64,000 bases of DNA from contig CALXXA010000028.1 in assembly GCA_944392585.1 (NCBI GenBank), forward strand, positions 521-64,520, read 5' to 3'. The notes below the pieces were generated by a model, which was not told where the DNA came from, did not search any database, and saw only the letters and a list, made by a program, of their open reading frames with translations. Positions 5,542 to 61,466 of this stretch are shown here, one piece after another (position 1 is the stretch's first letter; the number at the start of each line of letters is the position of its first letter). This DNA is from an uncultured Alphaproteobacteria bacterium. GTDB lineage: Bacteria > Pseudomonadota > Alphaproteobacteria > CAAHEQ01 > UBA3637. The position numbers and the translations under genes were made by a program.

Positions 5542-5576
5542 TGATGTCATATTTTATCTATTTTGTAAAAAAATGC

Positions 5577-5605
5577 TTGATTTTCTCCTAAAACTCTAAT
5601 ATAAT
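5577..5605 (+). promoter_or_regulatory. Near-consensus sigma70 promoter for abiEi: TTGATT, 17-nt spacer, TATAAT
   Basis: -35 at 5577-5582, -10 at 5600-5605, RBS AGGAGA at 5615-5620, ATG at 5625. A 6-bp inverted repeat ctccta/taggag (5585-5590 and 5614-5619) flanks the -10 and is a possible autoregulatory operator. Confidence 0.5.
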
Positions 5606-5624
5606 TGGAGTAATAGGAGAAAAT

Positions 5625-7072: not shown

Positions 7073-7103
7073 TCAATAACAAATAAAGATTTACTTCTAA
7101 TAT

Positions 7104-7159
7104 CCGGTCTTTGACTATGGTAATTTTGATATTCCAAGCGATAATTAAAATTGCCTAGC
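7104..7159. repeat. Direct repeat B; encodes '...PVFDYGNFDIPSDN*', i.e. the tail of the 4769-5530 protein with mostly synonymous changes
   Basis: Alignment to 5486-5541. Differences are ggg/ggt, aac/aat, gtc/gat and aac/aat. 'attgcctagc' recurs at 7208-7217. Confidence 0.8.
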
Positions 7160-7179
7160 GGATAAAGATACGAAACGAA

Positions 7180-7206
7180 AAAGGCGCAAAGTTATGCCTT
7201 TTTATG
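7180..7206 (+). terminator. Possible rho-independent terminator after the Abi cassette
   Basis: aaaggc-N10-gccttt followed by tttta. Confidence 0.35.
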
Positions 7207-7374
7207 GATTGCCTAGCAAAGAAAGTTTTGGGTGGTTCATTTGCTTAAATAGCACTTTTGCTTTCATCTCACAAAAAACACAGATGAATTGTGGTAAATG
7301 GGCATTTTCACATTGAGCCTAAAATTCATCACAAGAGCCTTTATAACTTAGCTTTCATCGCCTCATTTCAGGCA

Positions 7375-7400
7375 CGAAAAAAGCCCGTCTAAAACGGGCT
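7375..7400 (-). terminator. Rho-independent terminator of tRNA-Ala
   Basis: agcccgt-ctaaa-acgggct hairpin, followed on the minus strand by TTTTTTCG. Confidence 0.6.
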
Positions 7401-7411
7401 GAATCTTAAAT

Positions 7412-7487
7412 TGGTGGAGGTAAGGAGGATCGAACTCCTGACCTTTGCAATGCCATTGCAACGCTCTCCCAGCTGAGCTATACCCCC
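7412..7487 (-). tRNA. tRNA-Ala, anticodon GGC
   Basis: Reverse complement: GGGGGTATAGCTCAGCTGGGAGAGCG TTGCA-ATGGCAT-TGCAA AGGTCAGGAGTTCGATCCTCCTTACCTCCACCA. Cloverleaf with a 7-nt anticodon loop centred on GGC. CCA is encoded. Confidence 0.9.
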
Positions 7488-7548
7488 GTTTGATAAAATA
7501 TGAGTATATATAAATTTTTTTTTTATACAAGAAAAAAATAATTTTTTC

Positions 7549-8262
7549 TTATTTTAAATGACCTTCCATCTTTAATGAAGTTGCTCCAGTCCTTGAAATA
7601 ATAATATGGTCGCTTAATTCAATGGATAAAGAAACAGCGACATCTTTGAGTTGTTGGGTTGTTTTTATGTCTTGTATGGAAGGACGGGCATCTCCAGAAG
7701 GATGATTATGAATTAAAACCATAGACGTCGCACCAAGTTCCAAAGCTTTGTGAATAATTTCTCTCGGATATAAAGGAACTTTATTAATGGTTCCTTCCCC
7801 CATTTTCTGATCTAAAAGCAAGTGAAGTTTTGCGTCTAAAAATAAAATATGAAAAGATTCTTTTTTCTCACGACCAAGAGTCGAATAGCAATAATCCATA
7901 ATTTTAGCTCTGTTTCCCAAAATAGGTTGATTGATTAAATCTCTTCTTAAAATGGTTGCATGAGCGGCGCGAATAAGTTTAAACAATACTATTGTATTTT
8001 CTTTGATATATTTAAACCGATAAAGTTGTTCCGCCTCGGCGCATAAGACGTTTCCAAGCGTGTAAAACTCTGCTAAAAGCTGTTTAGCCAGCAGTTTCAC
8101 GTCTTTTCTGGGAATAGAATACATTAAAAGAGCTTCTAAAATCTCGTAATCATCAAAAGAACTTAAATCTGTTTTTAATATTTTTTCTTTGGTTCTCTCT
8201 CTGTGCCCGTGCAACAGAAGTAAAGGAGATTGATCATCTGGATGAGAAGGTTTCTTTTTCAT
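7549..8262 (-). CDS. radC: RadC-family JAB-domain protein
   Basis: C-terminus 'HNHPSGDARPSIQDIKTTQQLK' is the JAMM/RadC motif. The start probably lies at the internal Met (MKKKPSHPDD...), not the track's 8412 start, which would overlap map by 180 bp. Confidence 0.7.
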   Translation of the reverse strand: MKKKPSHPDDQSPLLLLHGHRERTKEKILKTDLSSFDDYEILEALLMYSIPRKDVKLLAKQLLAEFYTLGNVLCAEAEQLYRFKYIKENTIVLFKLIRAAHATILRRDLINQPILGNRAKIMDYCYSTLGREKKESFHILFLDAKLHLLLDQKMGEGTINKVPLYPREIIHKALELGATSMVLIHNHPSGDARPSIQDIKTTQQLKDVAVSLSIELSDHIIISRTGATSLKMEGHLK

Positions 8263-9067
8263 TTTTAACTGTCTTTTTCTGAATAAAATAAGGAGGATAA
8301 TCATATCCGGCCGGAGATAAAGTAAATACCTCAGGCCCATTTTTTGTAATTCCAATGGTGTGTTCAAATTGTGCGGACAGAGAGCGATCTTTTGTAATAG
8401 CCGTCCATCCATCTGATAAAATTAATGTATCAGAACCTCCAATATTAACCATAGGTTCTACTGTAAAAATCATTCCTTCTTGAATAGGCATTCCGTCTCC
8501 TTTTTTCCCATAGTTTAATACATTTGGTAATAAATGAAAGGCTTGCCCTACGCCATGTCCACAAAAATCTTCCACAACAGAGAAACGTTCTTTTGAGGCG
8601 CATAACTCGATGGCATGACCAATGTCTCCCATGGTGTTTCCTATTTTTGCCTGATTAATTCCGGCCCACATGGCATGAAAAGCGCATTCGACTATCCTTT
8701 TTGCCTTAATAGAAGGAGTTCCGACATAGTACATTCTGCTGCTGTCTCCATACCATCCGTTTAAAATAGGAGTAATGTCTATGTTGACGATATCTCCGTC
8801 GTAAAGGACTTTATCTCCTGGTATTCCATGGCAGACAATATGATTCGCCGAAATACAACTGGCTTTTGGATAGCCTCTGTATCCAAGAGTTGCCGGAATG
8901 GCTCCATGATCTCTCATGAATTCTTCCATTAAAGAGTCTAATTTTCCCGTTGTAATGCCGGGGACGACAAAAGGCGTGATATAATCTAGCGTTAAGGCAG
9001 CCAAATGGCCGGCTTGACGCATTCCTTCAAATTGTTCTACTGCATATAATGCTATTTGTTTATTCAT
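8234..9067 (-). CDS. map: Methionine aminopeptidase type I
   Basis: 277 aa. M24-family metal-ligand pattern (D..D..H..E..E) and typical MAP sequence. Confidence 0.85.
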   Translation of the reverse strand: MNKQIALYAVEQFEGMRQAGHLAALTLDYITPFVVPGITTGKLDSLMEEFMRDHGAIPATLGYRGYPKASCISANHIVCHGIPGDKVLYDGDIVNIDITPILNGWYGDSSRMYYVGTPSIKAKRIVECAFHAMWAGINQAKIGNTMGDIGHAIELCASKERFSVVEDFCGHGVGQAFHLLPNVLNYGKKGDGMPIQEGMIFTVEPMVNIGGSDTLILSDGWTAITKDRSLSAQFEHTIGITKNGPEVFTLSPAGYDYPPYFIQKKTVKNEKETFSSR

Positions 9068-18799: not shown

Positions 18800-19846
18800 C
18801 TATTTCGATTTTTGCATATTTTCTTTAAGAGATTGATTAGCTCTTACAAGCATGGCATCAATAGAATCTTTTTCATCTACTCGTCCGGCTATACCGAATG
18901 CTGTCGTTATAAACGCATTCCCTATTTCCGTTTTTAAGTTCTGCTCTTGTATCTTAAGGCGCAATCTTTCTGCCAAAAACTGTACATTTTCAATAGGCGT
19001 TTCTGGAAGTAAAATAGCGAATTCAACATCTCCAATCCGACCTAAATAGTCGGAATCTCTGATGGAATCTTTACAAATATGAACTGTTTTTTGCAAGGCT
19101 TCATCCCCAAAACTATATCCAAACTCTTGACCAAGCATGCGAAAATGATCTAACTTTAAAACCAATAAAGAAACTTTTCTGTCATAACGAATGGCTCTTT
19201 TTATTTCTTTATTCCCGATTTCTAGGAAAGCTGCTCTGTTTAAAACGCCTGTTAAAGGATCCATTGATGTGAGCTGCTTTAATTTTTCTTCCAATTGTTT
19301 TCGTTTTGTAATGTCAAAACCAACAGAACGAATTTCTATAGGATTATTGTCCTCGTCGTATACAACTCGGTTTGTCCAAGAAACCCAGACGGTGTCTCCG
19401 TTTTGACGTACGTTTTTTGTTTCTATATCCACATAAAGTTGAGGATTGAGTAAAATTTTCTCAACTAAAGTAGGTTGGTTGGCATCTTTGTGCGTAGATG
19501 GGGGCATAATTGTATCTATAATGCTATGATGAAGGAGATCTTTTTTATTAAATCCAAAAAATTCCTCAGCGTAATCGTTGATATAAGTAATTATCCCTTT
19601 TTTGTCTATTGTGATAATAATGCTTCGGGCGTTTTCTGTGGAAAAAGAGTCTGTAATATCGGAACTGTTTTTTTTGAATTCTTCTAATTCTTTTGTTTTC
19701 GCAGATAAGGACTCAGAGATATTCTTTAATTCTAAACAAGTGCGATTATATCGAATGCGTAATTGGGCGTACAAAAAAATCAAAAAACAAGTGGATATTC
19801 CCAGGAAGACAGCAAAAACCCATGACTCTGCACATGTCGATACCAT
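18800..19846 (-). CDS. Membrane-anchored PAS-GGDEF protein with a degenerate active site (GDVEF) and an intact RxxD I-site
   Basis: 348 aa. N-terminal TM segment, coiled coil and PAS ('IITIDKKGIITYINDYAEEFFG'). 'IRDSDYLGRIGDVEF' aligns to RxxD...GG(D/E)EF. Confidence 0.7.
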   Translation of the reverse strand: MVSTCAESWVFAVFLGISTCFLIFLYAQLRIRYNRTCLELKNISESLSAKTKELEEFKKNSSDITDSFSTENARSIIITIDKKGIITYINDYAEEFFGFNKKDLLHHSIIDTIMPPSTHKDANQPTLVEKILLNPQLYVDIETKNVRQNGDTVWVSWTNRVVYDEDNNPIEIRSVGFDITKRKQLEEKLKQLTSMDPLTGVLNRAAFLEIGNKEIKRAIRYDRKVSLLVLKLDHFRMLGQEFGYSFGDEALQKTVHICKDSIRDSDYLGRIGDVEFAILLPETPIENVQFLAERLRLKIQEQNLKTEIGNAFITTAFGIAGRVDEKDSIDAMLVRANQSLKENMQKSK

Positions 19847-32780: not shown

Positions 32781-33794
32781 ATGGAAAAAAAATATAGACT
32801 TCTCACACGAGATGACTTTGATGGGTTGGTGTGTGCCATTCTGTTAAAAAAATTAGATTTGGTTGATGATATTGTGTTCGTTCATCCAAGAGACGTGCAA
32901 CATAACAGAGTCTCCGTCTCCGCAAGAGATATTTCTGCTAATCTGCCGTATGTCCCCGGTGTTTACATGGCGTTTGATCATCATCCTCCGGAAAATAAGC
33001 AGGCAATATCATATACAAATTTTGTTTGTTCCCCGAAGGCTCCTTCTACGGCACAGGTCATTTATGATTTCTTTAATATGGAAGAAAAGTTCCCGAACGT
33101 TTTTGATGAAATTCTTCACGCTCTTAATAAAGCAGATACAGCCGATTTTTCTCAGCAGGATATTTTGGACTCTCAAGGATGGGCTTTGTTTAACTTTATT
33201 TTAGATCCTAAAACAGGCTTTACTCGTTTCCATGATTTTCAAACACAACATGAAGATCTTGTACGTTTATTGATTAATTCTATTGAAGGGATGTCTATCA
33301 ACGATATTTTAAATATGCCGGATATACAAGAACGGGTAATGCTTTATAGAACATATCAAAATCATTTTAAGGATCAAATCGAAAGATGTGCAACCGTTTT
33401 CCAAAACTTAGTCGTCGTTGATTTACGTGATGAGGAAATTATTTATCCGGGGAATCGTTTTTTAGTATATGCTCTTTATCCAAATTGTAATTTGTCTTTA
33501 ATGATCGAAAAAGATGTTAAATCAGAACGAATTACATTTTCTCTTGGAAGATCTATTTTAAATAAATCGTCCAAAGTGAACGCAGGAGCAATAATGGCAC
33601 TGTACAACGGGGGAGGACATACAAAGGCAGGGACTTGTCAAAGCTCTATTTTTGATGTAGAAAAAGTAAAAATGGATCTAATCGCGGCTATTTTGATGGC
33701 CTCCAAAAAAACGGACAAGGGAGAGCAAATAAATGAATATTCACGAGTATCAAGCGAAAAAAATATTCAGCCAGTATGGAATTCCAATTCTTAA
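32781..33794 (+). CDS. DHH-family phosphoesterase (NrnA-like)
   Basis: 337 aa. DHH motif 'MAFDHHP' and N-terminal 'DFDGLVCAILL' (DxD). Confidence 0.65.
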   Translation: MEKKYRLLTRDDFDGLVCAILLKKLDLVDDIVFVHPRDVQHNRVSVSARDISANLPYVPGVYMAFDHHPPENKQAISYTNFVCSPKAPSTAQVIYDFFNMEEKFPNVFDEILHALNKADTADFSQQDILDSQGWALFNFILDPKTGFTRFHDFQTQHEDLVRLLINSIEGMSINDILNMPDIQERVMLYRTYQNHFKDQIERCATVFQNLVVVDLRDEEIIYPGNRFLVYALYPNCNLSLMIEKDVKSERITFSLGRSILNKSSKVNAGAIMALYNGGGHTKAGTCQSSIFDVEKVKMDLIAAILMASKKTDKGEQINEYSRVSSEKNIQPVWNSNS

Positions 33795-34911
33795 AGGATG
33801 TATTGCTTATACGTCTCAGGAAGCTTATCGCTGTACGGATAAAATTGGGGGAAACAAGTGGGTTGTTAAAGCTCAAATACACTCTAATGCCAGAGGAAAT
33901 GGAAGTTTTATCGAAGCTCAAGCCGGGACCGGAGGAGGTATCCGCTTCGTTTCTTCCGCAGAGGAAGCCGCTAAAGAAGTTGATAAAATGTTGGGGAGGA
34001 CTTTAGTAACTGTTTCTACCGGTTCGGGAGGGCAAGAAGTTAAAAAAGTTTATATAGAGGAATATGTGGATATTTCTTTGGCGTATGCTTTAAGCATCTA
34101 TATTGATTTTAGCGTGGAAAAAGTTTTTTTGTCTCTCTCGGAAGTCAAAGAGGGCGCTAAAGAATGCCGTCCTTCTTTAAATGAATTGGATATTAATAAA
34201 AAAATGACACTTCTTGGAGCTAAAAAATTTGTGAAAAAAATAAAAATTCCTCCAAAACATGTGACAATGGTTGCTGAGATTATACAGAAAATGTATGAAA
34301 TCTTTAAAACATATTCTGCTTTTAGAATCGAGATCAATCCATTGGTTATTACTTCCGAAAATAAATTGTTTGCTTTAGATGGGAAAATTACTTTTGATCC
34401 AGATTCCGTTGGAAAGTATAAAGAAATTACCTGTATGCGAGATGTGGAAGAGGAAACTCCGAGCCAAATTAAAGCTCGTTTAAATAATTTCAGGTATATC
34501 AAACTTAAAGGAAACATCGGATGTATTATTAATGGATCTGGACTTGGGATGGCTACGTTGGACTTAATTCATCTCTATGGCGGAAAACCGGCGTGTATTT
34601 TGGATTTAGGAGGAGAACCAACAAAAGAAACGGTGACAAATGCTTTTAAATCTATTTTATCAGAACCTGATGTAGAAGGTGTTTTGATTAATATCTTTGG
34701 AGGTTCTTCCAGATGCGACATTATAGCAGAGGGATTAATCGCGGCTTCTCGCGAAATTAGCATTGGAATGCCGTTGGTTGTTCGAATGGATGGAACAAAT
34801 GCTCAAATAGGATCTCGATTGTTGTTTGAATCAGGATTGCCTTTTACAGTTAAACAAAGTATGGATGAAGCAGTGCGTGTGATAATTCAATCTATTCAGG
34901 AGATTGTCTAA
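33733..34911 (+). CDS. sucC: Succinyl-CoA synthetase beta-subunit homolog (ATP-grasp), divergent
   Basis: 392 aa. 'MNIHEYQAKKIF' and 'GNIGCIINGSGLGMATLD' are conserved. The ATP-grasp loop 'HAGGRGKAGG' reads 'HSNARGNGS' with an insertion. Overlaps the upstream gene by 62 bp. Confidence 0.8.
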   Translation: MNIHEYQAKKIFSQYGIPILKGCIAYTSQEAYRCTDKIGGNKWVVKAQIHSNARGNGSFIEAQAGTGGGIRFVSSAEEAAKEVDKMLGRTLVTVSTGSGGQEVKKVYIEEYVDISLAYALSIYIDFSVEKVFLSLSEVKEGAKECRPSLNELDINKKMTLLGAKKFVKKIKIPPKHVTMVAEIIQKMYEIFKTYSAFRIEINPLVITSENKLFALDGKITFDPDSVGKYKEITCMRDVEEETPSQIKARLNNFRYIKLKGNIGCIINGSGLGMATLDLIHLYGGKPACILDLGGEPTKETVTNAFKSILSEPDVEGVLINIFGGSSRCDIIAEGLIAASREISIGMPLVVRMDGTNAQIGSRLLFESGLPFTVKQSMDEAVRVIIQSIQEIV

Positions 34912-35807
34912 TGAGTATATTAGGAGATGAAAAAACACGTGTTATTTGTCAGGGAATTTTAACGCCGGAAGGGTTGAAACATACAGAACAAGCGTTGGCC
35001 TATGGGACAAACATTGTCGGAGGTGTTGCCAAAGAGAAAAAAGGAGGACAAATTTTCGGTGTTCCTCTTTATCACTCTGTTAAAGAGGCGGTAAAAGAAC
35101 AAAATCCGGATGTTAGTGTGATTTATACAACTCCTTTACAAGCAGCAGAAGAGATTATGGATGCGATAAGGGCTCAAGTTCCTTTGATTGTCTGCACGAC
35201 TGAACGTGTCCCTGTACAAGATATATTGAAAATCAGGAGCGTTTTGAAAAATTCAAAAAGTCGCTTAATTGGACCGGCTTCTCAAGGAATTATTACGGCG
35301 GGGGCTTGTAAAATAGGAACGATGCCGGCTCATTTGTTCCAAAAAGGGAATGTCGGGATTATGTCTAGATCCAGCTCCGTAATGTATGAAGCTCTGCAAC
35401 AACTTCATAATAAAGGACTGGGAGTGACAACTTGCGTCGCTTTGGGAGCTTACCCTATATTAGGAACTTCTTTTAATGATATTTTAGATTTGTTCTTGAA
35501 AGATAAGCAAACAGAAGCTATTTTATTAATAGGAGAAATAGGGGGATCTTTTGAACAAGATTTAGCAGAGTATTATCTCCAAAAAACAAATAAGAAACCT
35601 TTAATAAGTTATGTGGTGGGGAGTTTCGTCCCTCTTAAAACGTATATGGGAAATATTGGAGCCATTGTCAGTAAAAAAACAGAAACAGCTTCTTTTAAAA
35701 AAGAAATATTGAAAAAATCAGGCTCTATTATTGTTGATTCTCCAGTTCAAATCGGAGATGCTGTCTTTAAGACTTTAATACAACAAACATCAAAGAGTAA
35801 AAAATGA
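34911..35807 (+). CDS. sucD: Succinyl-CoA synthetase alpha-subunit homolog lacking the catalytic His (GHAGA to GNIGA) and the GxTGxxG CoA motif
   Basis: 298 aa. Aligns along its full length to SucD. 'VICQGILTPEGLKH' replaces 'VICQGFTGSQGTFH', and 'YMGNIGAIV' replaces 'RMGHAGAII'. Confidence 0.75.
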   Translation: MSILGDEKTRVICQGILTPEGLKHTEQALAYGTNIVGGVAKEKKGGQIFGVPLYHSVKEAVKEQNPDVSVIYTTPLQAAEEIMDAIRAQVPLIVCTTERVPVQDILKIRSVLKNSKSRLIGPASQGIITAGACKIGTMPAHLFQKGNVGIMSRSSSVMYEALQQLHNKGLGVTTCVALGAYPILGTSFNDILDLFLKDKQTEAILLIGEIGGSFEQDLAEYYLQKTNKKPLISYVVGSFVPLKTYMGNIGAIVSKKTETASFKKEILKKSGSIIVDSPVQIGDAVFKTLIQQTSKSKK

Positions 35808-36358
35808 ATATAGAGTTAACAAATTTAATTTATACGCGAATCAGTCATGATTTATCAAATCCGGCAGGAGCTCTTTATAACGGAGTAGAGTTGTTGTCCG
35901 AAAATGTTTCGGATCTTCAGGAAATGACCATCCTTTTGCAAAATAGTGCAACGGTTCTAATGGCAAGGTTGAAATTTTTTAGACAGGCTTTCGGTCTTCA
36001 AAATGTAACTTCTGAGGACGCAACGCAAGATTATTTGGCTTCATTATCTTCTCCGGTCCGTTTGGTCGGCGTTTGTTTGGATCCGTTGTCAAAAGTTTGT
36101 GCTATGGTTCTGGCAGATTGTTTAATTCGAGGCGGAACCATCACTGTAAAAGAAAATGAAATTACTGCTTATGGCGATAATATAAAAAGCCTCCCGAATT
36201 TAAAGGAAATTTTAGAAAAAGGAGAAAATGTTTCTGTTCCCGCGTTGGCGCCGGCTTATTATGCATTCTATTTAGCAAAAAGACAAAATTTAAAACTTTC
36301 TTTTTCCTATGATGTTCAAAGAAATTTTATTTCTTTAAAAAAAGTTGTGTTTTCTTAA
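35804..36358 (+). CDS. chpT: ChpT-like histidine phosphotransferase
   Basis: 184 aa. 'RISHDLSNPAGALYNGVELL' is the ChpT/HPTransfase H-box-like motif. Confidence 0.55.
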   Translation: MNIELTNLIYTRISHDLSNPAGALYNGVELLSENVSDLQEMTILLQNSATVLMARLKFFRQAFGLQNVTSEDATQDYLASLSSPVRLVGVCLDPLSKVCAMVLADCLIRGGTITVKENEITAYGDNIKSLPNLKEILEKGENVSVPALAPAYYAFYLAKRQNLKLSFSYDVQRNFISLKKVVFS

Positions 36359-36385
36359 AAAATATGACATCCTATAAAATAAGGA

Positions 36386-36748
36386 ATGAAAATGAAAAAA
36401 GCTCTTATTATCGAAAAGGCGCCTCACATCGCTGCTATTACAAAAAAAATGCTCGAGGATTTAGGGTTTATCGGGGTTATTGTCAATAATAAAGATGATG
36501 TTCTCCCGACTTGTGAAACAGAACAACCGGATCTGGTTATAATGGGGTATTCCACCTGTCAAGAAAGTAGTGCCGTATTTATTCCTAAAATGAAAAAAAT
36601 TTGCCAGCCGCAGATTATCTTTTGCTCTTCAAACTCTGAACCCGATAAAATTAAAGAGGCTCTGGATAGCGGGGTGGATGAATATATTATGAAGCCTTTT
36701 GATCATGATATCTTACAAAGTAAAATTTCTATGGTCGGTTTGTTATAA
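36386..36748 (+). CDS. Single-domain response-regulator receiver lacking the phospho-acceptor Asp (pseudo-receiver)
   Basis: 120 aa. CheY-like fold with conserved K ('YIMKPF') and S/T. The acidic pocket DD reads EK, and the D57-equivalent position after β3 'DLVIM' is Gly. Confidence 0.55.
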   Translation: MKMKKALIIEKAPHIAAITKKMLEDLGFIGVIVNNKDDVLPTCETEQPDLVIMGYSTCQESSAVFIPKMKKICQPQIIFCSSNSEPDKIKEALDSGVDEYIMKPFDHDILQSKISMVGLL

Positions 36749-36760
36749 GAGGTCCCTAAT

Positions 36761-37642
36761 ATGATTCCGAATGATTTTTATTTTATCGCCCAAATCCTTA
36801 AAGAACGTTCCGGCTTTTCTTTAACCGCGGATCAAATATATTTATTGGAAAGTAGGTTGAGTCCGATTATTCGTCAGAATAATCTAATTAGTTTGGAGGA
36901 TTTAATTAATTCTTTGAAGCTTAACAATAAAGAATTAAAGGAAGCTGTTATCGAGGCCGTAAGTATTAATAATACGAGGTTCTTTAGAAATACATATGCT
37001 TTTCAGACTATTAAAGAGTTCTTGCAAGATCTTTTAAAGAAAGATGCACAAAAGAAAAATTTTAAGATCTTATCCGCTGGGTGTGCCAGTGGGCAAGAAC
37101 CTGTTTCTATCGCGATCTTATTAAAAGAAATGAATCTTCCAAAAGATATTCGAATAGATATTTTTGCGCTTGATATGTCGCATCATATTATAGATCGTGC
37201 TAAAAAAGGCATCTATACTCATTACGAAGTGCAAAAAGGACTTCCGATCAGATTTTTGCTGAAATATTTTACGCATTTGGAAGAAGCATGGCAGCTCCAT
37301 CCGGAGATTATGCAATTAATTCATTATCATGTTCATAACATTATGGATCTCTTTTATGAACAAAATTTTGATATAATATTGTGTAGAAACATGCTCTCTT
37401 ATATGACAGATGAGGCTCAGAAAAAAGCGGTACAGAATCTTCGAGAGATTCTATCTCCGGAAGGTTTGTTAATTGTCGGAGCTTCTGAAACACTGCATCA
37501 AATGGAAGGATTCGAAAAAGTTCCGGATCGTGTCGGATGTTATCAAATTAAACAGATTGATAAAAAATTGGAAACTGTCCCTAAAACAGCATGGACAATT
37601 ATTAAAAAACCTTTATTTAAACCGGCTGTCCCTAAGAAATAA
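36761..37642 (+). CDS. CheR-family SAM-dependent protein-glutamate methyltransferase, orphan
   Basis: 293 aa. 'ILSAGCASGQEPVSIAILL' matches the CheR SAM-binding motif. No other che genes are in the window. Confidence 0.7.
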   Translation: MIPNDFYFIAQILKERSGFSLTADQIYLLESRLSPIIRQNNLISLEDLINSLKLNNKELKEAVIEAVSINNTRFFRNTYAFQTIKEFLQDLLKKDAQKKNFKILSAGCASGQEPVSIAILLKEMNLPKDIRIDIFALDMSHHIIDRAKKGIYTHYEVQKGLPIRFLLKYFTHLEEAWQLHPEIMQLIHYHVHNIMDLFYEQNFDIILCRNMLSYMTDEAQKKAVQNLREILSPEGLLIVGASETLHQMEGFEKVPDRVGCYQIKQIDKKLETVPKTAWTIIKKPLFKPAVPKK

Positions 37643-38391: not shown

Positions 38392-40140
38392 ATGATAAAT
38401 ACAGATATTTCAAAATATATTATTGATTATACCGAAAGGAATAGAAAAGAAAAGTTAATTCATTTAGTTGGGCGAAATGAGGAACTGAACAGATTAACGC
38501 ATATTTTATCGAGAAAATACAGAAATAATCCGTTAATTGTTGGATCTGTCGGGATTGGGAAAACGGCTCTTATCGAAGGACTTGTTTGTTTTTTGGATTC
38601 TGATGTCGCTCCAAAAGGATTAAAAAATAAACACATTGTTGGTGTGGATATTTCTTCTTTGATGTTGGATTGCGAAAATGACACTATATATACTCAAAAA
38701 TTAAAAGCGATTTTCGAACAAATCACGGCTTCTGGAAAACAGAACATTCTTTACATTAAGGATGTTAGTTTTTTAGTTAGGACAAATATAAATCCTGAAA
38801 ATACAGAACCCGCCAAGTTTTTGAAATTAAAGTTATTAGAAGGAACTTTAAATTGTATCGTGGAAACAGATCCTTTCCATTATAGGTCTTTTTTGGAAAA
38901 AGACACGGCGGTTCTTCAAATGTTACAAACAGTATTTCTTGAAGAGCCGACTCTTTCGGAAACGATTGAAATCGTTTCTAATCTTAAGAAAAATTATGAA
39001 GATTTTTACCACGTGATTATTCCTGATGCTTTTGTTGAAGTAGCGGTAAATTTAACACATCGTTATATTAAACAACGATTTTTCCCGGAGAAAGCATTAG
39101 ACTTATTAGATGATGCAGCCAGTCTGTTGCAAATAGAACAAACTATGGGAAAATTTCCTCAAGAAGTAAAAGAGCTCCCCGTAGATTTTGCAAGACAAGT
39201 TGTTTCTTTGTGGACTGGAATTCCTGTCGAAAAAGTAGATACAGAAGATAAAAAACGACTGGCTCATGCAGAAGAGTATCTAAAGAAACGTGTGGTGGGA
39301 CAAGATAATGCCGTTGGAGTCGTTTCCGATGCGTTGCGTCGTTCAAGATCTGGGTTACAAGATCCTAATAGACCTATAGGATCTTTTTTATTTATCGGAG
39401 AAACCGGTATTGGGAAAACAGAGTTAGCTAAATCTTTGGCTGAATTTGTGTTTAGTGATGAGAGTGCTTTATTACGGTTAGATATGTCGGAATATATGGA
39501 AAAAAATTCTGTTTCCCGCTTAATCGGTCCGCCTCCGGGAACACCGGGCTTCGAATTAGGAGGGCTATTAACTGAAAGTGTTCGATTAAAACCATTCCAA
39601 GTCATTTTATTTGATGAAATTGAAAAGGCTCATCCGGATATCTTAACGTTGCTTTTACAAGTTTTAGATGAAGGGCGATTAACAGATAGCAAAGGAATCT
39701 CTGTCGATTTTAAAAATACGATAATTATTATGACCTCAAATGTTGCTTCCAGTATGCCGACTTATCAAAGAATGGGCGTGTTGACACAATATTTTAGACC
39801 TGAGTTTTTAAACCGTATTGACGATGTTGTTACATTTCATCAATTAAAGGAAGAACATTTACATAAGATTATTGATATTCATTTGAATAAATTATTAAAG
39901 CGAGCAGAAGCTGAAGGCTATTATTTAACGGTGGATGATAGAGCTAAACAATGGTTCGTTGATGAGGTCTTTACATCAAAGTTCGGAGTTCGTGCTTTGA
40001 AACGATTGCTGCAGCATCAAATTGAAAATCCATTAGCTTTCTTAATCATGCAGGAAAAAGTCAAACCGGGAACTTATGTATTGGTCTCAATGGATAGCTC
40101 CGGGAAAAAGATACAGCTCTTTGCAAAGAAGAAAAAATGA
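38392..40140 (+). CDS. Clp/Hsp100-like double AAA+ ATPase lacking the N- and M-domains, with degenerate NBD1 Walker B and pore loops
   Basis: 582 aa. Walker A 'GSVGIGKTAL' and 'GETGIGKTELAK'. NBD2 Walker B 'ILFDEIEKAHPD' is intact. The NBD1 Walker B region reads 'ILYIKDVS' (no DE). The pore-2 'GYVG' reads 'GTPGF'. Confidence 0.7.
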   Translation: MINTDISKYIIDYTERNRKEKLIHLVGRNEELNRLTHILSRKYRNNPLIVGSVGIGKTALIEGLVCFLDSDVAPKGLKNKHIVGVDISSLMLDCENDTIYTQKLKAIFEQITASGKQNILYIKDVSFLVRTNINPENTEPAKFLKLKLLEGTLNCIVETDPFHYRSFLEKDTAVLQMLQTVFLEEPTLSETIEIVSNLKKNYEDFYHVIIPDAFVEVAVNLTHRYIKQRFFPEKALDLLDDAASLLQIEQTMGKFPQEVKELPVDFARQVVSLWTGIPVEKVDTEDKKRLAHAEEYLKKRVVGQDNAVGVVSDALRRSRSGLQDPNRPIGSFLFIGETGIGKTELAKSLAEFVFSDESALLRLDMSEYMEKNSVSRLIGPPPGTPGFELGGLLTESVRLKPFQVILFDEIEKAHPDILTLLLQVLDEGRLTDSKGISVDFKNTIIIMTSNVASSMPTYQRMGVLTQYFRPEFLNRIDDVVTFHQLKEEHLHKIIDIHLNKLLKRAEAEGYYLTVDDRAKQWFVDEVFTSKFGVRALKRLLQHQIENPLAFLIMQEKVKPGTYVLVSMDSSGKKIQLFAKKKK

Positions 40141-49422: not shown

Positions 49423-51615
49423 TTACCGGAGGACTTCGCGGACTTTTTGTGTTAATTGAGACAAGCTAAAAGGTTTGGGAAGGAAAGAGAAAGTTTGAGA
49501 ATCATCTTTCCCATGTCTGGCGAAGTCTTGAGAATAGCCGCTCATTAAAATGACTCGGATATTAGGATATCGATTTTTAGCAAGTTCAGCAAGCGTTTCT
49601 CCATCCATTCCAGGCATCATCATATCGGTTAGCAGTAAATCAAAAGGTCCGTTTTCTTCCATTTTTTTGAGAGCCTGTTCTCCGTCGGAACATTCTGTTA
49701 CGGTAAATCCTTTATTTTTAAGGACACGCGAACTAAAAGCACGAACAGCATCTTCGTCTTCTACCAGTAAAATTTTTGCGGAGCTTGTCGGAAAAGTATG
49801 AATGATTGTATTTTTCTGATCCGGCTCTTTTGATGCTTGCGTGAAGCGAGGTAAGTAAATAGTGAAAGTCGTTCCTTTTCCTAAAGAACTTTCCACTTGA
49901 ATATATCCGTCTGTTTGAGTAATGATTCCATAAACGGTTGATAATCCCAGACCTGTTCCAGAACCGGCGATTCCTTCTTTTGTCGAGAAGAAAGGTTCGA
50001 ATATACGAGATAAATTTTCTTGAGAGATACCGCATCCTGTATCAGTGACTGTAATAACGATATAAGTTCCCGGTATCATGATATCAGATCCGACGGTCCT
50101 TGTTTTTTTAAATGTTTCAACTTTGCTTTTGATTGTTAAAGATCCTCCATTCGGCATAGCGTCTCTTGCGTTGACGGCTAAGTTTAAAAAAACTTGGGTT
50201 AATTGATTAGGATCTACTTTAACGAAACCTAATTCCGGCGCATGTTGTGTTTTGAGCTCTATTTTAGGTCCGATACTGCGATGTAAAAGAGCCGTTAATT
50301 CCGAGAAAGCATCAGCAATATCTATAAGGCGAGGTTTTAAAGGTTGTTTTCTTGAAAAAGCGAGTAATTGACCAACTAAAGCAGAGGCTCTGTTTGCATT
50401 ATGCTTTATTTGCATAATATCGGCAAAAGAAGGATCTCCCATAGTATGTTTTTGTAAAAGTAGATCCGAAAAGCCGATAATTGCTGTCAACAAGTTGTTA
50501 AAATCATGAGCGACACCTCCGGCTAATTGCCCCATAGCCTGCATTTTTTGAGCGTGTGCCATTTGCATTTCCAGATTTTTTCGTTCAGATGAGTCGGTTA
50601 AATACAAAATGAAAGAGGAAACATCTGTCTCCTCAAGCCCGTTCATCTTAGGTTGTATAGGAGCTATAAATGCAATGGCGCTTCGTGTTTGCCCGTGAGG
50701 GAAAATAAAATTTAATTCGCATTTTTCAAATTTTTGAGCTTTCATTAGAAGCTTTGATAGCTTAAGCGGTAATGTTTCTTTGCTTTCTGTGTCAATAAAA
50801 GATAAAAAAGATTGGTCTTTTATTTGTTCAAATGGCAATGCCATCATCTTTTGAAAAGCTATATTCGCTTCTAAAACGGATAAATCCATTGCATCAATAA
50901 CGACCATTCCTAAAGGAGCATTTTGGAAAAAATCCGGAAATCCATCCGTATGGAATGAAGAGGTCGACGGAGAATCTTCTTCTTTAATGACAATGCTTTG
51001 GAACATTGTTTTCCCATCTTGATCAAAAGATGTTTGATAGACTTTGGCTGGGAAGGTCTTTTTCCCCGATTTAAATAAAACGCTTCCGCTCCAAGCTCCA
51101 TTCATATCAGGAAGTAATCCTTTGATGATTTCTTGTAAATGACGACCTTTAATATCTTCTTGTTTTTTATCCGTCCAATGAGATAATACGTCATTCATAA
51201 ACTGAACGCATCCTTCTGAATCAACAATATAAAGTCCGACGGGAAGTGTATCAATCGATTCTTGTAAAGTCGCTTGTTCTTGTCGAATTAAAGATTGAAT
51301 GACAACGGTGTCTGTTAAATCTTCTCCTATTAAAAGAAAATCTTTATTTACTTTCTTGAGCGTTATTTTATATGTTTTTTCTTCAACTTCTATTTGAACG
51401 CTTAAAGGACATCTTTGCATATAAGCGCTTTTGAGCTTTTCCAAAACGTTTTGTTGCGTTGTTTCTTTTAAAAAAAGAAAAGGATCTGTTCCTTCTTTAA
51501 AAAGTTGACGCCCTTTTTTGTTGGAAACCAAAACACGGCCATGGCTGGAGCGAAGTTGGCGCGCATCCGATTCTGTGTCTAGCAACGCTTGAAGAGCTTT
51601 GTTTTTCCCAATCAT
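49423..51615 (-). CDS. Hybrid sensor histidine kinase/response regulator (PAS-PAS-HisKA-HATPase-REC), CckA-like, apparently soluble
   Basis: 730 aa. H-box 'GVAHDFNNLLTAI', G2 box 'GTGLGLS', receiver 'LLLTDMMMPGMDG'. No N-terminal TM segment is evident. Confidence 0.8.
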   Translation of the reverse strand: MIGKNKALQALLDTESDARQLRSSHGRVLVSNKKGRQLFKEGTDPFLFLKETTQQNVLEKLKSAYMQRCPLSVQIEVEEKTYKITLKKVNKDFLLIGEDLTDTVVIQSLIRQEQATLQESIDTLPVGLYIVDSEGCVQFMNDVLSHWTDKKQEDIKGRHLQEIIKGLLPDMNGAWSGSVLFKSGKKTFPAKVYQTSFDQDGKTMFQSIVIKEEDSPSTSSFHTDGFPDFFQNAPLGMVVIDAMDLSVLEANIAFQKMMALPFEQIKDQSFLSFIDTESKETLPLKLSKLLMKAQKFEKCELNFIFPHGQTRSAIAFIAPIQPKMNGLEETDVSSFILYLTDSSERKNLEMQMAHAQKMQAMGQLAGGVAHDFNNLLTAIIGFSDLLLQKHTMGDPSFADIMQIKHNANRASALVGQLLAFSRKQPLKPRLIDIADAFSELTALLHRSIGPKIELKTQHAPELGFVKVDPNQLTQVFLNLAVNARDAMPNGGSLTIKSKVETFKKTRTVGSDIMIPGTYIVITVTDTGCGISQENLSRIFEPFFSTKEGIAGSGTGLGLSTVYGIITQTDGYIQVESSLGKGTTFTIYLPRFTQASKEPDQKNTIIHTFPTSSAKILLVEDEDAVRAFSSRVLKNKGFTVTECSDGEQALKKMEENGPFDLLLTDMMMPGMDGETLAELAKNRYPNIRVILMSGYSQDFARHGKDDSQTFSFLPKPFSLSQLTQKVREVLR

Positions 51616-52035: not shown

Positions 52036-54111
52036 TTGACAAGAGGATACAAAATGTTGGAAGTCATCAAAACATCAGAAGCAGAACCCTATCAAATAGA
52101 TATAGCTCCTTTGACAGATGTTATTAGTCGGGATGGTCAGGTTATTTCTTTTGATGCTTCAAAAATCGTAAGAGCAATTGAAAAGGCTGGGAAAGCTACC
52201 GGAGAATTCGGATTAGATGAAGCATGGCTTTTAGCAAGTCAAGTCGTTAAAGTTCTTAAACATCGGTTTGCTCATGGAACAGCACCGCAAGTTGAGCAAA
52301 TTCAAGATGTCGTTGAGCAATGTTTAATATCTTCTAATTATTATAAAACGGCTCGTGCATATATTGTTTATCGTGAGCGCAGAGAACAAGATAGACAAGA
52401 TAAAAAAACATTCGTTGATGTCATCGCATCTATTAATGAATACTTAGATCGTTCTGATTGGCGTGTTAGTGCCAATGCTAATCAAGGATATTCTTTAGGA
52501 GGATTGATTCTTAACACCTCCGGGAAGATGATTGCTAATTATTGGTTGAACCATGTGTATCCTAAGGAAGTCGGAGAGACTCACAGACGAGGAGATTATT
52601 ATATTCATGACTTAGATATGTTGTCAGGGTATTGTGCCGGGTGGTCTTTGAGAATGTTGCTGACGGAAGGGTTTAACGGGGTTCCAAATAAGGTTGAAGC
52701 ATTACCTCCCAAACATTTGGATACAGCATTTTTGCAAATGATTAATTTCTTAGGGACACTTCAAAATGAATGGTCCGGAGCGCAGGCCTTTAGCTCTGCG
52801 GACACATATTTGGCTCCTTTTATTCGCAAGGATAATCTTTCTTATGAAAAAGTTAAACAGGGGATGCAATCTTTTATTTATAATGTGAACGTTCCTTCTA
52901 GATGGGGAACTCAAACTCCCTTTACAAACTTAACTTTTGATTGGGTGTGTCCTGAAGATTTACGAAATGTACATCCTATTATCGCCGGGGAAGAAGTTGA
53001 TTTCACTTATGGAGAGCTTCAATCAGAAATGGATATGATTAACAGAGCGTATATTGAAATCATGACCGCTGGGGATGCTCGCGGGCGTCCGTTTACTTTC
53101 CCTATCCCGACGTATAATATCACAAAGGATTTCCCATGGAATTCTAGAAATACAAATCTTTTATTTGAAATGACTGCCAAATATGGGTTGCCATATTTCC
53201 AGAATTTTATTAACTCTTCTTTGTCTCCAAAACAAGTTCGCTCTATGTGTTGTCGGTTGCAATTGGATTTAACAGAGTTATTGGCAAGAGGGAATGGCTT
53301 GTTCGGATCCGCTGAACAAACAGGTTCTATCGGTGTTGTTACAATTAATTGTGCTCGATTGGGGTATCTTTATAAGGGAAATGAAGAAGCGATGATAAAG
53401 CGCTTGGATGAGCTGTTGGAGTTGGCTAAGACTTCTTTGGAAATCAAGCGTAAGGTTATTCAATCATATATGGATTCGGGGTTGTTCCCCTTTACAAAAA
53501 GATATTTAGGGACTTTACGCAACCATTTCTCAACAATTGGTGTTAATGGAATTAATGAAATGATCCGTAATTTTACGAATGATCAATATAACATTGCAGA
53601 TGCTGAAGGTATGAAATTCGCTATTCGGTTGTTAGATCATATCCGGGGAAAAATGGTTCAATTCCAATCTGAAACAGGTCATATGTATAATTTAGAAGCA
53701 ACTCCGGCGGAGGGAGCTACGTATCGGTTTGCTCGAGAAGATCAAAAACGGTTTCCTGATATTATTCAAGCGGGAACTCACGATGCTCCATATTATACGA
53801 ACTCTTCTCAATTACCGGCCAATTATACGGATGATCCTTTTGAAGCGTTGGATTTACAAGATACTTTACAGACTAAATATACCGGAGGAACAGTCTTACA
53901 TCTATATATGAATGAGCGAGTTTCTAATTCGGACACGTGTAAAGCTTTTGTTAAAAATGTTTTGGAGAATTATCATCTGCCTTACTTAACAATTACGCCT
54001 GTTTATTCTATTTGTCCTAAACATGGATATTTGTCTGGTAAGCATAAATTTTGTCCGCGTTGCGATGAGGAGTTAATTGCAAAAAAGCGTAAAAAAGTTT
54101 CTGTGTCTTAA
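52036..54111 (+). CDS. nrdD: Anaerobic ribonucleoside-triphosphate reductase large polypeptide, ending after the C-terminal Zn ribbon
   Basis: 691 aa. ATP-cone N-terminus. C-terminal 'CPKHGYLSGKHKFCPRC' Zn ribbon. No glycyl-radical motif in this ORF. Confidence 0.85.
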   Translation: MTRGYKMLEVIKTSEAEPYQIDIAPLTDVISRDGQVISFDASKIVRAIEKAGKATGEFGLDEAWLLASQVVKVLKHRFAHGTAPQVEQIQDVVEQCLISSNYYKTARAYIVYRERREQDRQDKKTFVDVIASINEYLDRSDWRVSANANQGYSLGGLILNTSGKMIANYWLNHVYPKEVGETHRRGDYYIHDLDMLSGYCAGWSLRMLLTEGFNGVPNKVEALPPKHLDTAFLQMINFLGTLQNEWSGAQAFSSADTYLAPFIRKDNLSYEKVKQGMQSFIYNVNVPSRWGTQTPFTNLTFDWVCPEDLRNVHPIIAGEEVDFTYGELQSEMDMINRAYIEIMTAGDARGRPFTFPIPTYNITKDFPWNSRNTNLLFEMTAKYGLPYFQNFINSSLSPKQVRSMCCRLQLDLTELLARGNGLFGSAEQTGSIGVVTINCARLGYLYKGNEEAMIKRLDELLELAKTSLEIKRKVIQSYMDSGLFPFTKRYLGTLRNHFSTIGVNGINEMIRNFTNDQYNIADAEGMKFAIRLLDHIRGKMVQFQSETGHMYNLEATPAEGATYRFAREDQKRFPDIIQAGTHDAPYYTNSSQLPANYTDDPFEALDLQDTLQTKYTGGTVLHLYMNERVSNSDTCKAFVKNVLENYHLPYLTITPVYSICPKHGYLSGKHKFCPRCDEELIAKKRKKVSVS

Positions 54112-54127
54112 AATTAAGGAGGGAAAT

Positions 54128-54322
54128 ATGAATACAGAAGAAATCTTATTATCTGATGATGAACGCCAACCTGTGGAATGTTGGACTCGTGTGATGGGTT
54201 ATTATAGACCGGTGATTTTTTTCAATAAAGGGAAACAAAGTGAGTTTGCTGAAAGAGTTTGGTTTAAAGAAGACAAGGCTGTTTCCGGAATGAACAGGAG
54301 TGATTGTATCAAAGAAGCCTAG
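54128..54322 (+). CDS. Stand-alone NrdD glycyl-radical domain (64 aa): 'TRVMGYYRPV...FNKGKQSEFAERV'
   Basis: Strong RBS AAGGAGG at 54116-54122, 5 nt before the ATG. The motif matches the NrdD C-terminal 'RVCGYLG...NxGKQxExxxRV' region. It is in a different frame from nrdD, 16 nt after the nrdD stop. Confidence 0.6.
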   Translation: MNTEEILLSDDERQPVECWTRVMGYYRPVIFFNKGKQSEFAERVWFKEDKAVSGMNRSDCIKEA

Positions 54323-54337
54323 GTTTATGAAAGATAG

Positions 54338-54367
54338 AACGCTCCGATGATCGGAGCGTTTTTTCTT
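54338..54367 (+). terminator. Rho-independent terminator between the glycyl-radical ORF and nrdG
   Basis: aacgctccga-tga-tcggagcgtt followed by ttttcttaaaaa. Confidence 0.65.
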
Positions 54368-54384
54368 AAAAAGAGAGAGAAAAA

Positions 54385-55092
54385 ATGATAAAAATAGGTG
54401 GCTTATTGCCTTTTACAATGATAGATTTTCCAGGAGAATTGGCCGCAGTTGTCTTTTGTCAAGGGTGCTTATTGAATTGTCCGTATTGCCATAATCCGGA
54501 GTTGAAAAGTTTATCGGATTCAACTCAGACTACGTGGAGCGATGTTATAAGCTTTCTAAAAAAACGTCAAAAGTTGTTAAGAGGCGTTGTTTTTAGCGGA
54601 GGAGAACCGTTACTTCAAAAGAATTTACACCAAGCGGTTTTAGAAGTTAAGTCTTTAGGGTTTAAAGTTGCGTTACACACTTCCGGAGCTCTGCCGGAAG
54701 CTTTGGGAAAACTGTTACAAGACCTTTCATGGATTGGATTAGATATAAAAGGTTCTTTCTCAAAATATCATAAAGCCTCGGGGACGAAAGTTGAGTTAAA
54801 TATAGCAGCATCTGTTCAAAAATCTCTAGATATGATATTAAGCGCCGGTGTTCCTTTCGAAGCACGAACAACAACAGATCCTAGAGTGCTAACAAAAGAG
54901 GATATTTTGGAGATGGCGTCATATTTATCTCAAAAAGGCGTTAAAACATACGCTTTGCAAGAGTATCGTCCTTGTAATAATGGGAGGATGCCGGAACCTT
55001 CTATGGAGGCTATCAGCGCTTTTTATCTGGATAAAATTTTCCTAAAAAAATTAGAAGATTTATTTGATTCTTTTATTATTCGGCGGGCGTAA
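54385..55092 (+). CDS. nrdG: Anaerobic RNR activating enzyme (radical SAM)
   Basis: 235 aa. 'CQGCLLNCPYCHNP' is the CxxxCxxC cluster motif. Confidence 0.85.
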   Translation: MIKIGGLLPFTMIDFPGELAAVVFCQGCLLNCPYCHNPELKSLSDSTQTTWSDVISFLKKRQKLLRGVVFSGGEPLLQKNLHQAVLEVKSLGFKVALHTSGALPEALGKLLQDLSWIGLDIKGSFSKYHKASGTKVELNIAASVQKSLDMILSAGVPFEARTTTDPRVLTKEDILEMASYLSQKGVKTYALQEYRPCNNGRMPEPSMEAISAFYLDKIFLKKLEDLFDSFIIRRA

Positions 55093-60608: not shown

Positions 60609-60767
60609 TTTCTTTCCTTTCTTTAAGTTTATTTTTTATTTAATATAAAATGTTTTCTAAAAAAAAGGGAGTCTTTTTTAATTTTTCTTTATTCTTAAAC
60701 GTTAAAGTTGCAATTTTTTTATAAAGACGGTACATTAAAAAAAATACTATTTATTAAGAGGAAAATA

Positions 60768-61466
60768 ATGCTTTCTTTTGTCTTTGCGTTTATTTTTGGT
60801 TTTTGTACGCCGTTGGTGGCCTCTCGGTTCGGGAAATTCTTACCAACGGATTTAGGTACGGTTTTGGCATCTCTTTGGCATTGTCCCAGATGTCCGAAAT
60901 GTCTTTCTCCTCAATGGGTAAATCTGTTTTATGGAAAGTGGAGGAAACTTTTAAGGTGGTGTTTTGTATGGGCTTGTTTACTTGTTTTCTTATTCTATCT
61001 CATTCATTTAAATTTTGATAATCAATCTCAGGTTTGGGTTAAAGCTTTAGTATGTATTTTGGCTCTGTTGACAGTTATTGATGATCGGTATTTTTTACTA
61101 CCGGATGTATTGACAATTCCTCTTTTATTCTTAGGATTCGGGTTTAGTATCTGGGGAGGGGAAATATCTTCGGCAGCTAGTTTTTGGGGATCCGTATATG
61201 GTTATTTGCTTCCCAGTGCCGCGGTTTTGTTCATCCATCCGTTTATTAAAGACAGTTTCGGGGGTGGAGATGTAAAAATGTTGACGGCTCTGGGAGCGTG
61301 GTTTGGTTTCTATGGCTTAAATATCGTATTATTAATTTCTGTCGTTTCTTTTTTTGCATGGTCTCTTTGGTCTCGTCGCCGCAGCGGAGCTTACGGTCCT
61401 CATTTGGCTTTCGGATCTCTTGTTTATTTATTTATTTCCCATTTCCAATATACTCACTTTTTTTAA
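60768..61466 (+). CDS. Type IV prepilin peptidase (A24 family)
   Basis: 'CPRCPKC' Zn motif, 'DDRYFLLPD' and 'GGGDVKML' catalytic Asp regions. Start moved to the internal Met at 60768, which has a GAGGAAA RBS. Confidence 0.7.
   Translation: MLSFVFAFIFGFCTPLVASRFGKFLPTDLGTVLASLWHCPRCPKCLSPQWVNLFYGKWRKLLRWCFVWACLLVFLFYLIHLNFDNQSQVWVKALVCILALLTVIDDRYFLLPDVLTIPLLFLGFGFSIWGGEISSAASFWGSVYGYLLPSAAVLFIHPFIKDSFGGGDVKMLTALGAWFGFYGLNIVLLISVVSFFAWSLWSRRRSGAYGPHLAFGSLVYLFISHFQYTHFF

Follow-up and report, generated by a model that had tools for sequence, protein, structure and literature searches.

Receiver domains without a phospho-accepting aspartate form a known class. FrzS, HP1043, ChxR, CikA-PsR and KaiA-N have kept the receiver fold and act without phosphorylation, and most of them are parts of larger proteins or regulators that bind DNA. 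A receiver of a different kind is encoded in the DNA analysed here, a stretch of 64,000 nucleotides (nt) from an uncultured alphaproteobacterium (assembly GCA_944392585.1, contig CALXXA010000028.1, positions 521 to 64,520 of the forward strand; hereafter the window). Directly behind sucCD, three co-directional and tightly spaced genes on the plus strand encode a ChpT-like phosphotransferase, a CheY-like receiver lacking the acceptor aspartate and a CheR methyltransferase, as the initial annotation of this DNA had stated (Table 1). Unlike the proteins listed above, this receiver is a stand-alone protein, by its sequence a CheY ortholog. What is new is that such an ortholog has no acceptor and is yet conserved, with a decay series that can be read from its relatives.

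The gene order chpT-cheY-cheR is likewise known, from Caulobacter. There, CC3471 (CheYIV) and CC3472 (CheR) were described as a "scattered" pair that also occurs in Phenylobacterium (PMC2529317). Caulobacter chpT is CCNA_03584 (PMC7200025), and the gene that follows it, CCNA_03585, encodes a cheY-type receiver (bioRxiv 10.1101/2022.05.23.493133); from these annotations, rather than from sequence comparison, CC3471 would be CCNA_03585. The resulting arrangement, chpT (CC3470/CCNA_03584)-cheYIV-cheR, has the same order as the trio in the window and lies outside the main che clusters (PMC2529317, PMC7200025, PMC7534056). In Phenylobacterium, PHZ_c0297/0298 form the same cheY-cheR pair. No functional study of the CC3471/CC3472 pair of Caulobacter was found in the literature.

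CpdR, a ClpXP adaptor and ChpT substrate, resembles the window protein in being a single-domain receiver; it is active when unphosphorylated and operates in the CtrA network. However, CpdR keeps its aspartate and is regulated through it, and the window protein is related to it by the receiver fold only. The "CpdR-like logic" proposed in the initial annotation was accordingly abandoned, since the receiver is, by sequence and position, an ortholog of a cluster CheY and no CpdR model occurs among its best 25 NCBIfam matches. The CpdR model does match the receiver domain of the CckA kinase in the window, which shows that the model works.

The complete counterpart of the trio is a chpT-linked chemotaxis operon of Alphaproteobacteria, presumably of the type found in Azospirillum brasilense. 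The gene order of the Che1 operon of that species is presumably cheA-cheW-cheY-cheB-cheR, as in the clusters scanned below, and those clusters may be of the F5 class as well. Che1 itself is an F5 system (PMC6759762), and its CheA1 and CheY1 tune swimming speed (PMC8100600). Compared with the complete operon, the window lacks cheA, cheW and cheB.

The trio as the remainder of a chpT-linked chemotaxis cluster

The reading preferred here, with a probability of roughly 0.6, is that the trio is the remnant of a che cluster, in which ChpT serves the CckA relay, the CheY relic acts constitutively and CheR is active on distant receptors. The parent cluster was sought by scanning species-representative genomes with a CheR alignment (A4). 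At least 80 loci were obtained, nearly all alphaproteobacterial and none from the window's own lineage, and their neighbouring genes were classed with our own hidden Markov models (HMMs); the counts given for the scan hold among the matches listed. Upstream sequence of 6.5 kb or more was available for 45 loci, and in 40 of these a chpT gene lies ahead of the che genes. The modal order chpT-cheA-cheW-cheY-cheB-cheR accounts for 30 of the 45, and the other patterns are mostly variants of open reading frame (ORF) calling. Furthermore, 32/45 have a convergent ctrA no more than 8 kb from cheR, and a methyl-accepting chemotaxis protein (MCP) gene adjoins the cluster in only three loci. In L009, which holds one of the nearest CheR relatives outside the window's lineage, an HPTransfase gene precedes cheA-cheW-cheY-cheB-cheR, beside a CtrA-like regulator and fliI/fliJ.

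The window receiver shares the tail "EYIMKPFD..I...K....G", or more strictly "EYIMKPFD..IL.SK....G", with the 71 cluster CheYs that have the canonical DD/D/T/K active site, and it stands between chpT and cheR. Because this C-terminal signature and the synteny coincide, the receiver is assigned as orthologous to the CheY that the chpT-linked operon encodes, and the trio can be described with confidence, from sequence and gene order, as the ancestral che cluster minus cheA, cheW and cheB. The ancestral cluster would have consisted of chpT, cheA-cheW-cheY-cheB-cheR and a convergent ctrA, an arrangement widespread in Alphaproteobacteria. Deletion of the cheA-cheW segment and of cheB in a low-GC (guanine-cytosine) uncultured lineage would have made chpT, cheY and cheR abut, and the resulting block would have been placed behind sucCD as one probable operon. 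CheA and CheW are absent from all loci of this lineage, and the order sucCD-chpT-receiver-cheR was found by context look-ups in L001-L008 and L092, so that the synteny proposed for checking is indeed conserved in relatives.

These results change the view of the CheR gene. Coupling to a CheR had been considered unusual; instead, chpT, che genes and cheR are neighbours in 40/45 loci, and a bare chpT-cheY-cheR arrangement also occurs in Hyphomonadaceae, Caulobacter and Phenylobacterium (PMC2529317, PMC7200025). Membership of a complete che operon, on which the initial annotation had let its interpretation hinge, applies to the orthologs of this CheR and does not apply to the window's segment. No paper was found on the chpT-che-ctrA linkage itself, save a remark on Rhodospirillum rubrum (PMC12363192). 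In Sphingomonas sp. WG, the gene numbers of chpT and CheR are five apart, which is consistent with the same order (PMC8921679).

Other reduced loci illustrate different degrees of loss. A Hyphomonadaceae metagenome-assembled genome (MAG), L010, carries chpT, a 184-residue ORF (4083-4637), cheY and cheR. The ORF has no Pfam match, but its product can be aligned with the CheA P1/Hpt domain at E = 1e-7, with Asp in place of the phospho-His; from this alignment it looks like a decayed cheA stump. In a Magnetovibrio MAG (L088), only cheY-cheR is left. The CheYs of both loci retain the active site and a canonical α1 helix, and they probably still serve a CheA encoded elsewhere. The Hyphomonadaceae ortholog has DD/D/T, with Arg at the position of K109, and a canonical α1, whereas D13, D57 and the canonical α1 are lost from the window receiver.

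Two features of the scanned loci may be recorded separately. The convergent ctrA lies no more than 150 nt past cheR in 17/47 of the listed loci of L011-L090 (e.g., L013, 2016-9671). In addition, Bradyrhizobium loci L035, L036, L050, L055, L062, L071, L078 and L089 show a second cluster form, which lacks cheB and runs cheA-cheW-cheY-cheR; behind it come genes for two larger proteins with receiver domains and, in several of these loci, a long kinase-like ORF of opposite orientation.

Loss of the phosphorylation site and retained surfaces of the receiver

The receiver is matched by Response_reg (PF00072; 7.6e-13) over 109/111 profile positions. Alignment with E. coli CheY and DivK places E/K/G/S/Y/K at CheY positions 12/13/57/87/106/109. 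The acidic Mg2+ pocket formed by D12/D13 is thus replaced by Glu and Lys, the acceptor position is occupied by Gly with no other Asp at that site, and the switch residues T/S87, Y106 and K109 are retained as Ser, Tyr and Lys. The loss of the acidic pocket and of the acceptor, claimed in the initial annotation, is therefore upheld. An independent metagenome copy from another sample (P0001, 99% identical) likewise carries Gly at the acceptor, and because of this the Gly is not a sequencing error. From these residues, we are confident that the window receiver would be unable to accept a phosphoryl group at the canonical site. Phosphorylation-independent action, as originally suggested, follows from the sequence; an adaptor role for the receiver is a guess.

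The fold appears to have outlived the active site. An AlphaFold2 model of the receiver has the (βα)5 fold with a mean confidence score (pLDDT) of 89.6, is weakest in the β3-α3 loop at the former Asp site, and matches ordinary receiver domains in Foldseek with a TM score of ~0.85. In this model, the protein ends four residues past α5 and has no Arg-rich C-terminal extension. Residues I95, A98, G102, E105, Y106, I107 and M108 are common to canonical CheYs, Asp-retaining relatives and Asp-less proteins, and so are K109, P110, F111, D112, I115 and K119. In CheY, the α4-β5-α5 face is the binding surface for FliM, CheZ and the P2 domain of CheA. By contrast with these positions, α1 has diverged, with BLOSUM scores of 2-19 against 49 among canonical members. 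On sequence grounds, the receiver keeps the α4-β5-α5 output face and has lost the canonical α1 docking helix. Mimicry of the CtrA α1 was considered for the window receiver and rejected (score 4.4 vs 47.6 among CtrAs).

Decay series and selection on the receiver

A word-indexed search found 13 relatives of the receiver. At 78-83% identity the acceptor position is occupied by Cys, at ~42% identity D13 and D57 are retained, and the order sucC-sucD-chpT-receiver-cheR is seen in both groups. Intermediates were added by an exhaustive profile search with context look-ups, and all of them stand in a chpT-receiver-cheR context. With the active site written as positions 12-13/57/87/109, the canonical cluster CheYs (71) have DD/D/T/K; L001, L007 and L008 have [LF]D/D/S/K; L091 has ER/D/S/K; L092 has ER/A/S/K; L004 and others have EK/C/S/K; and the window has EK/G/S/K. 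On the simplest reading, this series began with the loss of D12 and of the canonical α1, followed by the change of D13 to Lys or Arg and then of the acceptor to Ala, Cys or Gly. Such decay would have come after the loss of CheA, starting with α1, the helix on which the kinase docks; the Mg2+ pocket would have been next, with D13 turning into K/R, and the acceptor Asp last.

The gene order of L092 matches that of the window from pyrG to glgX, and a neighbour-joining tree of the DHH-like protein, sucC and sucD groups it with the window clade and leaves L001 outside. Its placement rests on synteny and this housekeeping tree, and the branching order is provisional.

Selection was assessed by comparing nonsynonymous divergence (dN) between neighbouring genes, synonymous divergence (dS) being saturated between the window and L004. 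For this pair, dN is 0.137 for the receiver, 0.139 for CheR, 0.119 for sucD and 0.360 for ChpT. Across relatives 41-83% identical, 31/118 receiver positions are invariant, and none of the copies seen has a broken reading frame. The chpT-receiver-cheR order persists between genomes whose sucD proteins are only ~65% identical. The dead receiver is under purifying selection, because its dN is about that of sucD and CheR despite the saturated dS; constraint on it seems to differ between branches. These data weigh against the idea that the receiver, and perhaps cheR too, is a non-functional relic in the course of being lost. The destroyed phospho-site, the variation of the dead position by branch (A, C or G), the fast evolution of the L092 receiver and the absence of partner genes nearby would all fit such a relic; however, the dN equal to that of sucD and CheR within the window clade, the intact frames, the invariant positions, the confident model of a complete receiver fold and the persistent gene order speak against it, and it is regarded as very improbable.

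ChpT and the CckA relay

ChpT is matched by Pfam HPTransfase (PF10090) over residues 100-169 (4.3e-9; 36.6 bits vs a cut-off of 22.9), which locates a C-terminal HATPase-like (pseudo-CA) domain. Two NCBIfam ChpT models match its N-terminus (6.9e-15 and 1.2e-10) with 55 and 41 bits, under the equivalog cut-offs of 240 and 225. The phospho-accepting His15 sits in "RISHDL", a further motif reads "RLKFFRQAFG", and H15 and D16 are invariant across a 21-sequence ChpT alignment (A2). The protein retains 20/22 positions conserved among 42 ChpTs of canonical clusters. The nearest solved structures are those of Brucella ChpT (4qpj, 3e-8) and Caulobacter ChpT (4fmt), aligned over residues 4-71. As far as its sequence tells, ChpT is apparently intact though of a divergent lineage.

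The phosphodonor expected for ChpT is also present. The initial annotation had pointed to a CckA-like hybrid kinase 12 kb away, and this is borne out by its PAS-HisKA-HATPase-REC (receiver) architecture and by NCBIfam, in which CckA is by far the best match (1e-157 and 8.5e-119), under the equivalog cut-off. ChpT would be an ordinary CckA-to-CtrA/CpdR phosphotransferase, standing beside the receiver by descent and not signalling to it; its role would be to serve the CckA-CtrA/CpdR relay, CtrA and CpdR being the substrates known for ChpT (PMC2877005). No ORF for CheA, CheW, CheB, MCP or CtrA was found in the window with our own HMMs and with Pfam on the large ORFs, and CpdR is not in the window either. 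The absence of CheA, CheW, CheB and MCP genes from the vicinity, noted at the outset, extends to ~18 kb beyond the window ends.

It might alternatively be argued, in the reading nearest to that of the initial annotation, that the receiver modulates ChpT or serves it as a pseudo-substrate: unable to take up phosphate, it would dock to ChpT, compete with CtrA and CpdR and tune cell-cycle and motility output with sucCD expression. The receiver gene lies directly 3' of chpT in one probable operon, and docking of receivers to ChpT involves α1 together with the β5-α5 loop, as seen in the Brucella ChpT-CtrA structure (4qpj). Moreover, α1 is remodelled in the lineage, and in L092 it is nearer to that of CtrA than to that of CheY (11.9 vs 2.1). 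The window α1, however, is unlike that of CtrA, with the scores given above, and adjacency to chpT is inherited, the gap between chpT and cheA having a median of 145 nt in 40 canonical clusters among the matches listed. Profiling of all Caulobacter receivers reportedly revealed no transfer to CC3471. Competition for ChpT would also leave the retention of cheR unexplained, and the known substrates of ChpT are CtrA and CpdR only (PMC2877005). A pseudo-substrate role is consequently considered improbable.

CheR and its relation to the receiver

CheR is a two-domain protein matched by Pfam CheR (PF01739; 1.4e-47) and CheR_N (PF03705; 3.7e-8), and its best solved match is Pseudomonas aeruginosa CheR1 (5xly; 3.4e-34; residues 5-249). 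Among chpT, the receiver gene and cheR, cheR is the best conserved. The motifs "FFR" ("FFRN"), "GCASGQEP", "ALDMS" and "CRNMLSY" are retained in alignments A3 and A4. We take the catalytic and S-adenosylmethionine (SAM)-binding residues to be those of Salmonella CheR, namely the Arg of "FFR", the Tyr of "CRN...Y", the Gly loop of motif I and the Asp after β2. By these motifs, CheR looks intact as a SAM-dependent, MCP-type glutamate methyltransferase, and it keeps 58/97 positions conserved in the CheRs of canonical clusters. It is nevertheless a divergent, lineage-specific form with the basic C-terminal tail "AWTIIKKPLFKPAVPKK". The CheRs of the window, L001, L004 and L007 share this conserved tail, "AWT[IL]IKKPLFKPA[IV]PKK" (window 37589-37642), which was found neither in L008 nor in canonical-cluster CheRs. 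CheR would remain an active methyltransferase acting on chemoreceptors encoded elsewhere in the genome.

The pairing of receiver and CheR invites another explanation, namely that the two are a functional pair in which the aspartate-less CheY, as a regulatory or targeting subunit, binds CheR and tunes or localises methylation; the two genes would then have outlasted the reduction of the cluster owing to their joint function. A precedent exists in MapZ, a small PilZ receptor for cyclic diguanylate (c-di-GMP) that binds P. aeruginosa CheR1 and controls methylation, although MapZ is not a receiver domain. That CheR1 is the nearest solved CheR fits this idea; two of the CheR1 structure entries are, we assume, complexes with MapZ. 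It would also agree with the survival of cheY and cheR as a pair in three reduced loci (the window lineage, L010, with Caulobacter from the literature, and L088), with the overlap of the receiver stop and cheR start in most loci of the lineage, and with the near-equal dN of the two genes within the window clade. The deletion of cheB, though, fully accounts for the adjacency of cheY and cheR. The canonical active site and α1 of the L010 and L088 CheYs fit a CheA-served CheY better than a CheR subunit. A functional pair is held to be unlikely, although it ranks first among the alternatives, before the weak case for a ChpT pseudo-substrate and the dead relic disfavoured by selection.

A more far-reaching possibility is that the receiver and the divergent CheR form a phosphorylation-independent module with a new job. 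CheR might, for example, methylate something other than a chemoreceptor, the receiver being the subunit that confers specificity or targeting, thereby tying central metabolism to CtrA output in a lineage perhaps without chemoreceptors. If true, a new module run from the sucCD-chpT operon would link central metabolism to a CtrA-controlled cell-cycle or motility output. This possibility is rated as a long shot.

Proposed function of the remnant and implications

Under the remnant reading, the CheY relic would bind its old partner constitutively through the α4-β5-α5 face, the partner being the flagellar switch or another Che component, or it would act on CheR. Its effect would be set by the amount made together with sucCD and chpT, and not by phosphorylation. 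The data establish where the trio comes from, its orthology, the missing phospho-site, the sequence of decay steps and purifying selection; the binding partner of the receiver, the substrate of CheR and co-transcription are matters that we infer.

Several observations weigh against the remnant reading. Genes for MCP, CheA, CheW, CheB, CtrA and the flagellum are absent from the ~82 kb covered, which comprise the window and a further ~18 kb past its ends. In CheR, 39/97 conserved positions have changed, including W104L, Y115V and F215M/D216T, which could mean an altered substrate. The neighbour-joining tree of CheR conflicts with the housekeeping tree, both being simple trees of this kind. In addition, the L092 receiver (6001-6381) is only 38% identical to that of the window, against 73% for sucD, a hint that constraint has loosened in one branch or more. 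Finally, ChpT, the receiver and CheR of the lineage are all long-branched, and part of their divergence may come from lineage-wide fast evolution and low GC and not from a change of function.

These loci provide a clean natural series of response-regulator decay after kinase loss, in which docking helix, metal pocket and acceptor Asp disappear in turn while the output face stays, and make a good test case for the origin of pseudo-receivers and for what they still bind. The poorly studied chpT-cheY-cheR arrangement of Caulobacter would likewise represent the remains of a che operon. The linkage of chpT and ctrA to this cluster across Alphaproteobacteria suggests that the CtrA relay has long been connected with one chemosensory system. 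For annotation, the label "response regulator" should be avoided for such proteins, and ChpT-to-receiver signalling cannot be inferred from adjacency alone.

Gene organization and neighbouring genes

The operon structure of the locus can be judged from its spacing. The sucD stop and the chpT start share 4 nt (ATGA), an overlap through which sucD is predicted to be translationally coupled to chpT. The following gaps measure 27 nt (chpT-receiver) and 12 nt (receiver-cheR), each with a motif resembling a ribosome-binding site. In relatives, the receiver gene starts at the equivalent of the second ATG, which is taken as the probable true start (Table 1). On the plus strand, the only terminator-like match lies within chpT (36053-36069) and none falls in the intergenic gaps; such matches are rarer than in shuffled sequence. 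Given the 4-nt overlap, the short gaps with these motifs and the lack of an intergenic terminator-like site, sucCD-chpT-receiver-cheR is likely to be one operon and thus co-transcribed.

Table 1. Positions of the trio and of other features in the window
Feature	Positions	Strand	Length	Basis or remark
chpT	35804-36358	+	184 aa	Pfam HPTransfase and NCBIfam ChpT N-terminal matches
Aspartate-less receiver (pseudo-CheY)	36386-36748	+	120 aa	Pfam Response_reg; probable true start 36392
cheR	36761-37642	+	293 aa	Pfam CheR_N and CheR
sucC-sucD	33733-35807	+		Pfam; immediately 5' of chpT
cckA hybrid histidine kinase	49423-51615	-		Pfam PAS, HisKA, HATPase_c and Response_reg; NCBIfam CckA
DHH-like uncharacterised gene	32781-33794	+		Conserved with the locus; Pfam DHH only 0.006
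Island by tRNA-Ala	2048-8412			Looks mobile
tRNA-Ala	7412-7487
PAS-GGDEF diguanylate cyclase gene	18800-19846	-
Clp/Hsp100-type double-AAA ATPase	38392-40140		582 aa	Aligns to ClpA from profile position 167
NrdD with radical-SAM activase	52036-55092			Anaerobic ribonucleotide reductase; TTG start
Type IV prepilin peptidase	60708-61466

The DHH-like gene precedes sucC in every locus of the lineage, encodes 310-337 residues and overlaps the sucC start by 62 nt in the window. A homologue (6e-90) lies directly 3' of cheR in L088 (8844-9776), and the gene is absent near cheR in the other 69 listed loci for which the downstream flank spans 4 kb or more. The protein has no informative family match in the searches made, and the gene may be unrelated to the function of the trio.

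Beyond the window ends, the ~18 kb covered contain only housekeeping genes and an island with restriction-modification and Fic genes; the latter, past the left end (L095, 8934-18421), comprises a type I restriction-modification system and a Fic protein. Within the window, the small island next to tRNA-Ala holds genes for RadC and a large serine recombinase, as well as an AbiEii toxin gene accompanied by two unknown ORFs. The ClpA-like ATPase, which seems to be without the N-terminal domain, is conserved in position in L004 and L092. Given the diguanylate cyclase gene, the organism probably uses c-di-GMP signalling, which could be relevant to the control of CckA and motility. To judge from the nrdD gene and the prepilin peptidase gene, it may live anaerobically or facultatively so and may bear pili.

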